Below are positions 26,191 through 38,889 of a stretch of DNA of 64,000 nucleotides, piece by piece; the stretch's first letter is position 1, and each line of letters begins with the position of its first letter. The stretch is taken from assembly GCF_055900595.2 (NCBI RefSeq), contig NZ_CM148325.1. One strand, 5' to 3'. The notes below the pieces were generated by a model that was not told the origin of the DNA, ran no database searches, and was given only the letters and a program-made list of their open reading frames with translations. The position numbers and the translations under genes were made by a program.

Positions 26191-26976
26191 CTACGCGTCT
26201 TCCTGGGGAAGGATGATTTCAATTTGGCTGTCTTGTAAACGTGATTTTAGCGCAGCGGGCGGCAGCTCGTCGGTAAAGAGTGCAGTGACCTGTGCCACAT
26301 TACCAATTTCAACCGCCGCCGAAGCATGATACTTAGTGTGATCGGCGACCAGCAGAATATTTCTCGCGTGCGCCATCATCGTTTTCACCACGTTAGCTTC
26401 GTTAACATCAAACTCCATCAACGCGCCATCGCTCTCAATCGCCCCAACACTTGTTACCAGATAATCAGCCCGAAAATCGGCCACAAAGGAAGCCGCTGAA
26501 GGGCCAATGATCCCGCTATTATGAGAGCGCAATGTACCGCCGGGCACCATCACTTCAAAGCGCGGGTTGTGGTACAGAATATGCGCCACACGCAGGCTGT
26601 TCGTGATTATCCGCAAATGATTATGGTTAAGTAACGCCCGGGCGACATGTTCGACAGTCGTACCGATGGTGATAAATATTGTCGATCCATCAGGAATATA
26701 GTCTGCCACCGCTTCGGCAATCGCTTTTTTCTCTTCAGTTTGCGAAACCTCACGCTGTTCGAACGCCGTATTAACGACGCTGGAGGCCCGACCCGCGCCA
26801 CCGTGATGGCGCGTGATCAGCCCTTGCTCGCTTAATTTACGAATATCCCGGCGGACCGTCTGCGTGGAAACATCCAGCAGATTTGCCAGCTCATCAATAT
26901 TCATATACCCACGCTCGGCGATCAGCATGAGGAGTTGGTCGTGCCGCGGGTTACCGGTCAGTTCGGTAAGGCTCAT
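26191..26976 (-). CDS. yihW: DeoR-family repressor of the sulfoquinovose cluster (261 aa)
   Basis: N-terminal HTH (IDELANLLDVSTQTVRRDI), DeoR C-terminal domain; divergent from yihU. Confidence 0.85.
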   Translation of the reverse strand: MSLTELTGNPRHDQLLMLIAERGYMNIDELANLLDVSTQTVRRDIRKLSEQGLITRHHGGAGRASSVVNTAFEQREVSQTEEKKAIAEAVADYIPDGSTIFITIGTTVEHVARALLNHNHLRIITNSLRVAHILYHNPRFEVMVPGGTLRSHNSGIIGPSAASFVADFRADYLVTSVGAIESDGALMEFDVNEANVVKTMMAHARNILLVADHTKYHASAAVEIGNVAQVTALFTDELPPAALKSRLQDSQIEIILPQEDA

Positions 26977-27009
26977 GAAAATTCCTCGAAAAACCATCAC
27001 CCTGGCATT

Positions 27010-27906
27010 TTATACAAAAAGTGACAAAAAAGATCGGGTTTGATCACAGTCAGGGATCCCGGCACGCCCACCGGGACGCGTGCATTTTAACGCCGCCACA
27101 CCGCTGGCAAAGCGGACGGAATCCGCTAAATCTCCACCTGTTGCCAGCGCCACCGCCAATGCGCCGTGAAAAACATCGCCCGCACCGGTAGTATCTACCA
27201 CATCAACTTTGAAAGCTGGCTGATGCTGTCGCCCGCCATTCTCCAGCCAGTCACAGCCTGCACTGCCCTGAGTAACATAGACATGTCCATTTGTGAGCAT
27301 TTGTGCCTGTTTTAGGGCACTCGCCATCTCTTTCACGCCCGTTAGCCGCGCCAGACCCGGTTCTGAAAAAGCTGCATGATCGCTTAACGCCACCAGCTCA
27401 CTGATATCCTGCGGCGTAATATCACCGTCCAGCACGGTCATCACGCCCGCCTGCCGCGCCAGAGTGAAGGCTTTTTTCGCGCCGTCATGCCAGCGTACAT
27501 CTGCCAGCACCACGTCCCACTGAGAGAAATCAATTTCCTCCAACCACTCTGCGTCAGGCAGCAGGTCCGGGCTGGGATAGTTAATGATGATTCGCTCGCC
27601 TTTGGCATCCACCATGATGGCGGATTGCGAAGATTTCGCCTGGTTATACCGCTTGGTGTAACGGGTGTTAACGCCCCAGGATTCCAGCTCTGCCAGCAGG
27701 CTGTTTCCCGTGTCGTCGTCACCGACGCGACCAATAAAATCGACCTGCGCACCCAGTCTGGCCGCCGCAACTGCTGCTGTAGCCGCTGGCCCGCCGCCAA
27801 CTTCCGTATAATTTTTCGCCACGTATTTACCGCTCTCCGTCGGCAACCCTTCCACGTAATAGATGCGATCCATCACGGTAATTCCTACACAAGCAACACG
27901 AATCAT
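27010..27906 (-). CDS. yihV: PfkB-family sugar kinase (6-deoxy-6-sulfofructose kinase, 298 aa)
   Basis: Ribokinase/PfkB motifs (GGxxxN, DTTGAGD). Confidence 0.85.
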   Translation of the reverse strand: MIRVACVGITVMDRIYYVEGLPTESGKYVAKNYTEVGGGPAATAAVAAARLGAQVDFIGRVGDDDTGNSLLAELESWGVNTRYTKRYNQAKSSQSAIMVDAKGERIIINYPSPDLLPDAEWLEEIDFSQWDVVLADVRWHDGAKKAFTLARQAGVMTVLDGDITPQDISELVALSDHAAFSEPGLARLTGVKEMASALKQAQMLTNGHVYVTQGSAGCDWLENGGRQHQPAFKVDVVDTTGAGDVFHGALAVALATGGDLADSVRFASGVAALKCTRPGGRAGIPDCDQTRSFLSLFV

Positions 27907-28073
27907 GGTCATTCCTTAAGCATTTTGGGATGCGTTCATTTTAATTTCACCAATTGTTTAAAAAGTGACGGCTGTCAATTTTTTGACGATAAATTACAAA
28001 TACGATCAAAAACAGACAAGCAAGGTATGTCATAAATGACAAAAAGTGACATCACTGTATTCAGGAGAGGGTT

Positions 28074-28970
28074 ATGGCAGCAATCGCGTTTATCGGTTTA
28101 GGACAAATGGGTTCGCCAATGGCGAGCAATTTATTGCAGCAAGGGCATCAACTTTGCGTCTTCGATGTGAATGCCGAAGCCGTACAGCATCTGGTAGACA
28201 AAGGGGCGACTCCCGCTGCTAACCCAGCGCAGGCCGCTAAAGATGCCGAATTTATCATTACCATGTTGCCGAATGGCGATCTGGTGCGCAGCGTGTTGTT
28301 CGGTGAAAACGGTGTCTGTGAGAGCTTATCTTCCGATGCGCTGGTCATTGATATGTCGACCATCCACCCCCTGCAAACCGATAAATTGATTGCTGATATG
28401 CAGGTCAGAGGCTTCAGCATGATGGATGTTCCGGTTGGCCGTACTTCCGCAAATGCCATTACCGGTACTCTGCTACTGCTGGCTGGCGGCACTGCTGAAC
28501 AAGTTGAACGCGCCACGCCGATCCTGATGGCGATGGGCAGCGAGTTGATCAACGCGGGCGGTCCGGGCATGGGGATCCGCGTTAAGCTTATCAACAACTA
28601 CATGAGCATCGCGCTCAATGCGTTGTCGGCAGAAGCCGCCGTTTTGTGCGAAGCCCTGAATCTTCCCTTCGATGTTGCCGTCAAGGTAATGAGCGGTACT
28701 GCCGCCGGTAAAGGCCACTTCACCACTTCCTGGCCGAACAAAGTCCTCAGTGGAGATCTTTCTCCCGCCTTCATGATCGATCTTGCCCATAAGGATCTTG
28801 GCATCGCCCTCGATGTTGCCAACCAGTTGCATGTGCCGATGCCGCTGGGGGCCGCCTCACGGGAGGTTTATAGCCAGGCGCGCGCAGCGGGTCGAGGTCG
28901 CCAGGACTGGTCCGCCATTCTGGAGCAGGTCCGTGTCAGTGCCGGGATGACTGCCAAAGTAAAAATGTAA
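28074..28970 (+). CDS. yihU: NAD-dependent beta-hydroxyacid dehydrogenase (3-sulfolactaldehyde reductase, 298 aa)
   Basis: N-terminal Rossmann GLGQMG; 3-hydroxyisobutyrate dehydrogenase family. Confidence 0.85.
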
Positions 28971-38053: not shown

Positions 38054-38120
38054 ATGTCAATAGCCGCTATTTCCATCCTGATGGGTGGCGGCCCCCCTAC
38101 GTTAAAAAAATGGACTTATT

Positions 38121-38813
38121 ATGAAAAAGATTAATGCAATAATTTTATTATCTTCTCTGACCTCTGCCTCGGTATTTGCTGGCGCATACGTCGAAAACAG
38201 GGAGGCATATAATCTCGCCTCCGATCAGGGCGAGGTTATGCTACGTGTGGGTTATAACTTCGATATGGGCGCGGGTATCATGTTAACCAATACCTACAAC
38301 TTTCAGCGCGAAGATGAACTAAAACATGGATATAACGAAATTGAAGGCTGGTATCCGTTATTTAAACCAACCGATAAATTAACCATCCAGCCCGGTGGAT
38401 TAATTAATGATAAGAGCGCCGGTTCCGGTGGTGCAGTATATCTGGACGTCAACTATAAATTTGTACCATGGTTTAATCTGACAGTGCGAAATCGCTATAA
38501 CCATAATAACTACAGTTCAACAGATTTGAACGGGGAGCTGGATAATAATGACACCTATGAAATTGGTACCTACTGGAATTTCAAAATCACCGATAAATTC
38601 TCCTATACATTTGAGCCACATTATTTTATACGCGTAAATGACTTTAATAGCAGCAATGGAAAAGATCATCATTGGGAAATCACTAATACCTTCCGTTACC
38701 GTATTAATGAACACTGGCTGCCTTATTTCGAATTACGCTGGTTAGACCGCAACGTCGAGCCGTATCACCGCGAGCAAAACCAGATTCGTATCGGAACGAA
38801 GTATTTCTTCTGA
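38121..38813 (+). CDS. ompL: KdgM/OmpL-family small outer-membrane porin (230 aa)
   Basis: Signal peptide, beta-strand-rich, C-terminal ...GTKYFF. Confidence 0.85.
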   Translation: MKKINAIILLSSLTSASVFAGAYVENREAYNLASDQGEVMLRVGYNFDMGAGIMLTNTYNFQREDELKHGYNEIEGWYPLFKPTDKLTIQPGGLINDKSAGSGGAVYLDVNYKFVPWFNLTVRNRYNHNNYSSTDLNGELDNNDTYEIGTYWNFKITDKFSYTFEPHYFIRVNDFNSSNGKDHHWEITNTFRYRINEHWLPYFELRWLDRNVEPYHREQNQIRIGTKYFF

Positions 38814-38821
38814 TGTGAAAA

Positions 38822-38889
38822 TGTAAAAAGTCGCTGATATGGACTGCCCCCCATAAAGTTGGACAGTTCAGGTTAAGCGGCTTTTTACA
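38822..38889 (+). terminator. Putative ompL terminator (long imperfect palindrome)
   Basis: tgtaaaaagtcgct ... aagcggctttttaca inverted repeat followed by T-run. Confidence 0.5.

Follow-up and report, generated by a model that had tools for sequence, protein, structure and literature searches.

Identification of a sulfoquinovose utilisation cluster in the window

Which sugar does the gene block at positions 26191-38813 of the 64,000-nucleotide stretch of DNA analysed here (the window) serve, and which of its permeases would release the end product? The host DNA is E. coli chromosome, 99.9% identical to NZ_CP098223.1. The corresponding cluster of E. coli K-12, ompL-yihOPQRSTU / yihV-csqR, is reportedly the sulfo-EMP cluster described by Denger et al. 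in 2014. The enzymology of the K-12 cluster has been worked out (Sharma et al. 2021, PMC8006165). We read the block as a chromosomal E. coli sulfoquinovose (SQ) utilisation cluster of the sulfo-EMP pathway in its ancestral eleven-gene form, with a TauE/SafE permease as the putative exporter of the C3-sulfonate DHPS, and we put the probability of this reading at roughly 85%.

In the window, csqR (yihW) and yihV diverge from yihU-yihT-yihS-yihR and yihQ-yihP-yihO-ompL. The first-pass annotation had claimed these ten genes; all were found in the order and on the strands that it gave, free of internal stops and with 94.7-100% protein identity to K-12 MG1655, and its family assignments were confirmed by NCBIfam and Pfam. 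The alignment to K-12 orthologues that it had called for revealed no inactivating mutations in the window, where all eleven ORFs of the cluster are intact. Its reading was incomplete, not wrong: the block is even more self-contained than described, since it also holds a TauE-type permease, absent from the K-12 model, that the list had omitted. The block end that it placed at 38889 takes in ompL and lies merely 76 nt beyond the ompL stop at 38813.

The identity of the cluster is based on synteny with K-12, intact ORFs, equivalog-level family matches, conserved catalytic and sulfonate-pocket residues, and CsqR with its operator spacer. The block was matched in 4038 of 5426 complete E. coli genomes, in every case on the chromosome, and is therefore no chance pattern. 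Window and K-12 share the chromosomal site beside yihX-yihY-dtd-fabY and the ten genes, with order and orientation unchanged. They differ in that nucleotide identity is only 92.5-96.7% and that an STM4015-STM4011 family cluster lies downstream of ompL in the window, where K-12 has yihN-yihM-yihL. As first described, the cluster is a textbook locus, intact and ordinary, and nothing is new in that part. An Rfam gathering scan of 25500-39500 detected no RNA family.

Conservation of the sulfo-EMP enzymes and transporters

The specificity and catalytic residues checked were those of the characterised enzymes (Sharma et al. 2021, PMC8006165), and every published catalytic or sulfonate-pocket residue checked was conserved in the window proteins. 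yihV (27010..27906, - strand) encodes a predicted sulfofructose kinase of the PfkB family (298 aa, 98.3% to K-12) that keeps the K27-N109-R138 sulfonate pocket; NCBIfam has no dedicated model for YihV and gave only sub-threshold ribokinase matches. The product of yihU (28074..28970, + strand; 97.7% to K-12) matched the NF012005 equivalog with 600.9 bits (cut-off 348) and conserves R123, N174 and S178, which points to an NADH-dependent sulfolactaldehyde 3-reductase that would make DHPS. yihT (28994..29872, + strand) encodes an intact class I sulfofructose-1-phosphate aldolase of the DeoC/LacD class I aldolase family (292 aa, 98.6% to K-12), with the Schiff-base K193 as well as A26, S226, S227 and R253 conserved. 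In the SQ / sulfofructose / sulforhamnose isomerase YihS (AGE fold; 29888..31129, + strand; 413 aa, 99.0% to K-12), the catalytic His248/His383 and the Arg55-Gln362-Gln379 pocket are kept, and W51, F239, W316, R238 and W375 are likewise conserved. yihR (31197..32099, + strand) encodes a sulfoquinovose mutarotase (aldose 1-epimerase; 94.7% to K-12) that matched the NF011719 equivalog with 611 bits (cut-off 251) over profile positions 1-299 of 300.

The GH31 sulfoquinovosidase YihQ (33142..35178, + strand; 96.2% to K-12) scored 1238 bits against NF007746 (cut-off 553) and 1576 bits against the solved E. coli YihQ, 5aed. Its catalytic Asp pair D405/D472 is present; these residues are presumably the nucleophile and acid/base of Speciale et al. 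2016. The sulfonate-binding triad Arg301-Trp304-Tyr508 (PMC8006165) is present as well. The transporters comprise two GPH-family symporters that are 64% identical to each other, YihP (35224..36609, + strand; 99.4% to K-12; TIGR00792, 536 bits) and the SQ importer YihO (36650..38053, + strand; 98.3% to K-12; TIGR00792, 527 bits), and the KdgM-family outer-membrane porin OmpL (38121..38813, + strand; 98.7% to K-12), which matched NF007434 'porin OmpL' with 472.5 bits (cut-off 288). The Salmonella OmpL orthologue matches Pfam KdgM.

Except for export through TauE, the steps of the proposed pathway are established for the K-12 orthologues and are carried over to the window on the strength of near-identity. 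SQ glycosides would cross the outer membrane via OmpL and be taken up by YihO, with its paralogue YihP probably a further entry route. SQ-glycerol would then be hydrolysed by YihQ and the anomers equilibrated by YihR. After isomerisation of SQ to sulfofructose by YihS and phosphorylation by YihV, cleavage by YihT would yield DHAP and sulfolactaldehyde, the latter being reduced to DHPS by YihU. In our analysis the TauE/SafE (TSUP) permease would then probably export DHPS as the C3-sulfonate end product. The sulfo-EMP reading (SQ to DHAP and DHPS) proposed in the first-pass annotation is thus an already known one, and family matches, conserved specificity residues and the near-identity of CsqR and its predicted operator support it at the sequence level. 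Growth on SQ with DHPS excretion, and induction by SQ, are known for K-12 only (PMC6278857, PMC12608037).

CsqR and the yihV-yihU spacer

csqR (26191..26976, - strand) encodes a DeoR-family repressor of 261 aa that is 100% identical to K-12 CsqR, has DeoR/GlpR family matches and is so annotated by RefSeq in the 99.9%-identical genome. In K-12, CsqR gives a single strong gSELEX peak in the yihV-yihU spacer (PMC8249747). The window spacer (27907..28073), lying between the divergent genes, shows 4 differences from K-12 in a 201-nt alignment (98% identical), and the flanking genes are 93-95% identical; with an identical repressor and a nearly identical spacer, it is the predicted promoter-operator target of CsqR. 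From this site CsqR would repress the cluster until released by SQ, SQ-glycerol or sulforhamnose. A regulatory region at 27913-28073 had been proposed earlier; the spacer itself stands, but it starts at 27907 when the K-12/RefSeq start of yihV (ATG at 27906) is used, 27913 having followed from the longest yihV ORF, whose ATG lies two codons upstream.

The motif AAAAANWGAC occurs four times in the spacer and a fifth time at 27016-27025, just upstream of csqR. Five of its seven matches in the 64-kb window thus fall at the cluster, compared with 1.9 expected window-wide for a motif that was itself derived from this spacer. We infer that the copies are putative CsqR operator half-sites. No tauE-specific promoter, operator motif or terminator was found by either the consensus promoter and terminator scan of 31000-39100 or the AAAAANWGAC search. 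In the consensus scan, promoter-like sites were no more frequent than expected by chance, and neither tauE nor ompL was followed by a convincing + strand terminator. Co-transcription of tauE with yihU-ompL is assumed.

An eleventh gene encodes a TauE/SafE permease

The yihR-yihQ gap, left blank in the first-pass annotation, contains an 876-bp gene, tauE (32160..33035, + strand); at this place K-12 carries a 198-bp spacer unrelated to it. Its 291-aa product matched Pfam PF01925 with an E value of 2.4e-35 (residues 23-248 on model positions 2-235 of 237) and shows hydrophobic windows along the whole protein; the full-length profile match and polytopic character place it in the TSUP / TauE-SafE family. 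No NCBIfam model matched the protein, and no PDB relative was detectable by sequence. An AGGAA ribosome-binding site lies 7 nt upstream of the gene, and its GC content (0.486) is inside the range of the cluster.

The Salmonella enterica yih locus has the identical eleven-gene layout, with STM4015-4012 genes after ompL in some strains; its proteins are 71-96% identical to those of the window, and synonymous divergence is saturated. The Salmonella operon has been named 'yihUTSRQPO' plus 'yihVW', without the TauE gene (PMC7922415). The yihR-TauE-yihQ order was found at two loci of Salmonella enterica and in E. whittamii, and Klebsiella has the order yihQ-TauE-yihO. Relative to Salmonella, tauE (86.3% aa identity, dN 0.091, dS saturated) is comparable with the neighbouring genes (85-88%, dN 0.077-0.094). 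Since tauE lies inside the cluster in Salmonella, E. whittamii and Klebsiella and has diverged like its neighbours, it is, as judged from these comparisons, an ancestral cluster gene lost by K-12. Recent insertion of tauE was rejected on its GC content and on its neighbour-like divergence from Salmonella. The 99% aa identity of TauE to that of E. whittamii had suggested introgression of a whole allele from that species, which was also rejected, the gene being 94.7% identical at the nucleotide level; yihQ is about equally far from E. whittamii and K-12 in an alignment judged by eye.

The K-12 spacer shows homology to the window only at its two ends, over ~29 nt at the start and ~55 nt at the finish. 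Its middle ~115 nt showed no detectable similarity to the window at the DNA or protein level, and no remnant of tauE was found in it. By this comparison the K-12 spacer is a replacement of tauE, not a clean deletion. Among 5426 complete E. coli genomes, about 1290 (1296), O157:H7 among them, carry tauE and about 2610 have the K-12-type spacer, which is at least 99% uniform in 2358 genomes; the long yih cassette is missing from about 28%.

TauE as a candidate DHPS exporter

Outside the window, ten TauE contexts were examined and all ten were sulfoglycolysis clusters, of two kinds. The second kind (Hafnia, Mixta, Leminorella, Edwardsiella, Vibrio) contains a LacI regulator, an SSS symporter, an IlvD/Edd dehydratase, an HpcH aldolase, an epimerase, an SGL lactonase, a YihU-like reductase, an SDR and TauE. 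The SDR matched the solved sulfoquinovose 1-dehydrogenase 9gwu with an E value of 1.6e-95 and 322 bits (next match, 198 bits), which identifies these clusters as sulfo-ED independently of TauE. Pseudomonas putida SQ1 is the organism in which the sulfo-ED route was originally reported, according to the citation of Felux et al. 2015 in PMC12890257. The sulfo-ED-type clusters resemble the window in ending in a TauE orthologue of 77-85% aa identity and in having an aldose epimerase and a YihU-like beta-hydroxyacid reductase. They differ in their chemistry (SQ dehydrogenase, lactonase, IlvD/Edd dehydratase, HpcH aldolase), their SSS importer and their LacI regulator, and they have no GH31 sulfoquinovosidase within 10 kb.

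With an importer already present in each kind of cluster (GPH in one, SSS in the other), the unmet need common to both would be export of the product. Because TauE is shared by these two routes, it is most likely the C3-sulfonate (DHPS) exporter. TauE-type permeases have been predicted to export sulfolactate or DHPS in sulfo-TAL clusters, where the protein is called 'SftE', and in actinobacterial sulfo-EMP clusters such as that of Arthrobacter (PMC7491151, PMC8873060). These share with the window protein the Pfam family, the in-cluster placement and the proposed export of C3-sulfonates; unlike it, they belong to Firmicutes and Actinobacteria. They too are predicted exporters, likened to it by family, placement and role.

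It is possible, though we consider it unlikely, that TauE instead exports sulfite, imports SQ, SQ-glycerol or another sulfonate, or exports sulfolactate made by a housekeeping aldehyde dehydrogenase, with YihP remaining the DHPS exporter. TSUP stands for 4-toluene sulfonate uptake permease, and both the name of the family and the member characterised first relate to the export of sulfite (PMC8873060). Proposed roles in the family cover both import and export, and the TauE sequence reveals neither the direction of transport nor the substrate. Sulfite export is, however, at odds with the lack of a desulfonating enzyme in either cluster type, and an import role with the importers that both already have. 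Two further points favour YihP: both Salmonella and the window keep YihP alongside TauE, and K-12 can grow on SQ and release DHPS despite lacking TauE, which makes TauE dispensable for export. Against this, YihP is 64% identical to an SQ importer and belongs to a cation:sugar symporter family, a better fit for sugar import than for export of a C3 acid, and Klebsiella manages with TauE and a single GPH protein that is closer to YihO (74%) than to YihP (68%).

In the literature, YihP is worded as 'most likely' the DHPS exporter, and ΔyihP is not among the listed K-12 knockouts tested (PMC6278857); we found no experimental test of this role. The ΔyihO phenotype, by comparison, established that yihO is essential for growth of K-12 on SQ (cited in PMC6278857). 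Ten genes and YihP as exporter are given, with no mention of the TauE gene, both in a 2025 survey of yih cassettes in E. coli and in a review of 2026. If TauE is the exporter, the textbook role of YihP becomes doubtful for the eleven-gene form.

We give about even odds to a broader proposal: that the ancestral enterobacterial sulfo-EMP cluster had eleven genes, that TauE is a dedicated DHPS exporter shared with the sulfo-ED cluster, that YihP is a second importer (for example, of SQ-glycerol as opposed to free SQ), and that a single replacement event, inherited by K-12 and about two-thirds of the E. coli with the long cassette, took the exporter out. Were this true, the model strain K-12 would give an incomplete picture of the transport steps. 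The gene occurs in roughly one in four complete E. coli genomes, and also in Salmonella enterica and in Klebsiella. The identity of the exporter matters for cross-feeding, as DHPS from the breakdown of SQ in the gut supplies sulfite-respiring, H2S-making bacteria.

State and function of the cluster

That the cluster is cryptic or decaying in this lineage, in a strain that does not use SQ, seems improbable. The nearest sequenced relative, 10 SNPs and 2 indels away over 20.7 kb, carries a premature stop in yihT, G29380A, that makes it a pseudogene, so decay of the pathway is possible in this lineage; in addition, SQ does not induce the yih genes of E. coli Nissle, whose yih cassette is short (PMC12608037), and many E. 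coli genomes lack the long cassette, as noted above. Against decay of the window copy stand its eleven intact ORFs, conserved active sites, identical repressor and nearly identical operator spacer. Purifying selection is indicated by high synonymous divergence alongside 95-100% protein conservation.

A different primary function, either assembly and translocation of the O-antigen capsule, to which the Salmonella operons were first tied, or alternative lactose degradation, as proposed for E. coli, is highly improbable: surface, desiccation and plant-colonisation phenotypes of Salmonella yih mutants (PMC7922415) and the lactose response of the K-12 yihV and yihT promoters (PMC5816610) are set against the finding that 100-fold derepression of the Salmonella operon gave no higher capsule yield, with the same authors now doubting the role (PMC7922415), against the dedicated sulfonate pockets of the sulfo-sugar-selective enzymes (PMC8006165), which are conserved in the window, and against the sulfonate-family permease inside the cluster, which points to sulfo-sugar metabolism.

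Gene content of the cluster and match to the K-12 sulfo-EMP system

The window is part of an E. coli chromosome, and its genes were located from the ORFs and from the RefSeq annotation in NZ_CP098223.1 (strain Z0117EC0005), the closest genome, which is 99.9% identical to the window. The gene order runs rhaM ... fdoGHI-fdhE ... fabY-dtd-yihY-yihX, the yih cluster, ... typA-glnALG ... polA ... mobAB. On the minus strand of the cluster, csqR (yihW; 26191-26976) and yihV (27010-27906) diverge from the genes of the yihU side, which all lie on the plus strand: yihU (28074-28970), yihT (28994-29872), yihS (29888-31129), yihR (31197-32099), a TauE/SafE family gene (32160-33035), yihQ (33142-35178), yihP (35224-36609), yihO (36650-38053) and ompL (38121-38813). 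The first-pass annotation had read this block as a ten-gene sulfoquinovose (SQ) sulfo-EMP module with DHPS as the end product. The ORFs and the RefSeq annotation confirmed that observation for ten of the eleven genes and revealed the TauE gene that it had overlooked. The yih system itself is already known.

The alignment of each ORF with its K-12 orthologue, proposed in that annotation as a check, found all ten genes shared with K-12 MG1655 to be intact and syntenic, with protein identities of 94.7-100% and DNA identities of merely 92.5-96.7%. YihU, YihR, YihQ and OmpL gave NCBIfam equivalog-level matches above the curated cut-offs (the YihU model being sulfolactaldehyde 3-reductase), YihP and YihO matched the GPH family, and YihQ aligned with the E. 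coli enzyme of known structure at 1576 bits. The catalytic and sulfonate-recognition residues of the yih enzymes were defined by Sharma et al. (2021; PMC8006165). All those checked are conserved in the window: H248, H383, R55, Q362 and Q379 of YihS, K27, N109 and R138 of YihV, K193 and R253 of YihT, R301, W304 and Y508 of YihQ, and R123, N174 and S178 of YihU. The 76 substitutions relative to K-12 all fall elsewhere.

The CsqR protein is identical in the window and K-12, and the yihV-yihU spacer shows just 4 differences in a 201-nt alignment. CsqR gave its one strong gSELEX signal in K-12 at this spacer (PMC8249747), which is also the EMSA target in PMC12608037. The motif AAAAANWGAC has four copies in this spacer and one closely upstream of csqR; the 64-kb window holds seven matches against 1.9 expected, five of them at the spacer or csqR, for a motif derived from that spacer itself, where four of its matches fall. 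Since the motif comes from the same spacer, its copies are offered only as candidate operator half-sites. Collectively, the intact genes, the family matches, the conserved residues and the near-identity of CsqR and the spacer support the sulfo-EMP interpretation of the block, from which its function in the window strain is predicted.

An eleventh gene encodes a TauE/SafE permease

The product of ORF 32160-33035 is a hydrophobic protein of 291 aa that matches Pfam TauE/SafE (PF01925) over the whole model (E 2.4e-35). A ribosome-binding site precedes the gene, tauE, whose GC content is inside the range of the neighbouring genes. K-12 differs in having a 198-bp spacer at this position, with homology to the window confined to the spacer ends. 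Of 5426 complete E. coli genomes, 4038 matched the block; the TauE segment was present in 1296, O157:H7 among them, and the K-12-type spacer in 2609, in 2358 of which it was at least 99% identical.

Exactly the same eleven-gene layout is found in Salmonella enterica, and it recurs in E. whittamii, while Klebsiella quasipneumoniae carries yihU-T-S-R-Q-TauE followed by one GPH gene. TauE of the window and of Salmonella share 86.3% of amino acids with a dN of 0.091, compared with 85-88% and 0.077-0.094 for the neighbours, synonymous sites being saturated. These shared layouts and the neighbour-like divergence indicate that tauE was in the cluster before the Escherichia/Salmonella split and that the K-12 form is derived. 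Judged from the sequences, tauE is under purifying selection.

The publications examined on the cluster appear to have overlooked the gene. The enzymology work (PMC8006165) and a review of 2026 (PMC12890257) describe ten genes, and so does a survey of yih cassettes from 2025, which distinguishes 'long' and 'short' forms only and in whose text TauE, exporter and sulfite do not occur (PMC12608037); the Salmonella literature names the operon yihUTSRQPO (PMC7922415). Given that tauE is annotated in RefSeq, it is no discovery.

The permease is shared with sulfo-ED-type clusters

Orthologues sharing 77-85% identity with TauE occur widely in Enterobacterales and extend to Vibrio. In Hafnia, Mixta, Leminorella, Edwardsiella and Vibrio, tauE is the last gene of a different conserved cluster (at about 1000-10900 of loci L013, L014, L016, L017, L009 and L010), which encodes a LacI regulator, an SSS symporter, an IlvD/Edd dehydratase, an HpcH aldolase, an aldose epimerase, an SGL lactonase, a YihU-like reductase and an SDR. 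The Vibrio SDR matched the solved sulfoquinovose 1-dehydrogenase (9gwu) with an E-value of 1.6e-95, far above other SDRs, which assigns the cluster to a sulfo-Entner-Doudoroff route without recourse to TauE. No GH31 sulfoquinovosidase was found within 10 kb of these six clusters. Because of the YihU-like reductase, this enterobacterial and vibrio cluster probably yields DHPS rather than sulfolactate; discussion of such a variant was not found in the literature examined.

TauE as candidate exporter of the C3 sulfonate

TauE is thus common to two chemically different SQ pathways, whose importers differ by cluster type (GPH versus SSS). Both produce sulfolactaldehyde, and a YihU-like reductase is encoded in both clusters. 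A permease kept in two pathways with importers of their own points to a shared need unmet by the other genes, namely export of the C3 sulfonate. In sulfo-TAL and actinobacterial sulfo-EMP clusters, TauE-type permeases are the predicted sulfolactate/DHPS exporters (PMC7491151, PMC8873060). YihP shares 64% identity with YihO, the proven SQ importer, and the sole Klebsiella GPH protein resembles YihO (74%) more than YihP (68%). The assignment of YihP as DHPS exporter was worded 'most likely', and ΔyihP is absent from the knockouts reported as tested (PMC6278857); no account of DHPS export in K-12 ΔyihP was found in the literature examined. Taking these lines together, the best reading, with a probability of about 0.5-0.6, is that TauE would be the DHPS exporter and YihP a second importer. 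Against it, K-12 excretes DHPS without TauE, and both import and export have been proposed for proteins of the TSUP family. What we carry forward is the eleventh gene and a testable reassignment of the export step.

Decay, other proposed functions and flanking regions

Over 20.7 kb, 10 SNPs and 2 single-base indels separate NZ_CP098223.1 from the window. One of the SNPs, G-to-A at window position 29380, introduces an internal stop codon into its yihT, which is thereby a pseudogene. The pathway has indeed decayed in this genome, but the window yihT lacks this stop codon and is intact. The lactose link of the locus (PMC5816610) amounts to no more than a secondary regulatory observation. The O-antigen capsule function originally suggested in Salmonella has since been called into question by the group that examined derepression.

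On the minus strand at 8265-12408, an insertion of two genes separates fdhD from yiiG; K-12 is not known to carry a gene at this junction. One encodes an HSP90-family ATPase paralogue of 611 aa, which at 288 bits stays below the NF010683 cut-off of 455, and the other a 768-aa protein, tetratricopeptide repeat protein according to RefSeq, with no NCBIfam or PADLOC match. PADLOC gave just one match for the region, a weak hit to TmtA (E 5e-6), and the pair is possibly a defence or stress module. At about 20978-22792, going by the annotation of NZ_CP098223.1, a transposase gene lies together with a truncated hypothetical ORF between fabY and yiiE, where K-12 has no IS.

Between ompL and typA/bipA, 39026-44563 (plus strand) carries six genes, namely STM4015, STM4014, the STM4013/SEN3800 hydrolase, the radical-SAM genes STM4012 and STM4011, and a Cof-type HAD hydrolase, all of families termed 'hypothetical equivalog'. 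A 1-bp deletion at 39141 in NZ_CP098223.1 frameshifts STM4015, which is intact in the window. K-12 has yihN-yihM-yihL here and E. whittamii has yihN/yihM-like ORFs, whereas the STM genes follow ompL in one Salmonella enterica locus (L012) and not in the other (L011); this is a variable slot adjoining the SQ cluster.

The yih block with its left flank (22728-38823) is unusually diverged from K-12 in DNA (92.5-96.7%), with proteins at 95-100%, while bipA, a short way past this stretch, is 98.6% identical. Block identity reaches at least 99% in just 8 of the 5426 E. coli genomes and lies at 90-95% in 3828. This divergence agrees with PMC12608037, which reported deep allelic lineages as well as recombination for the yih locus.
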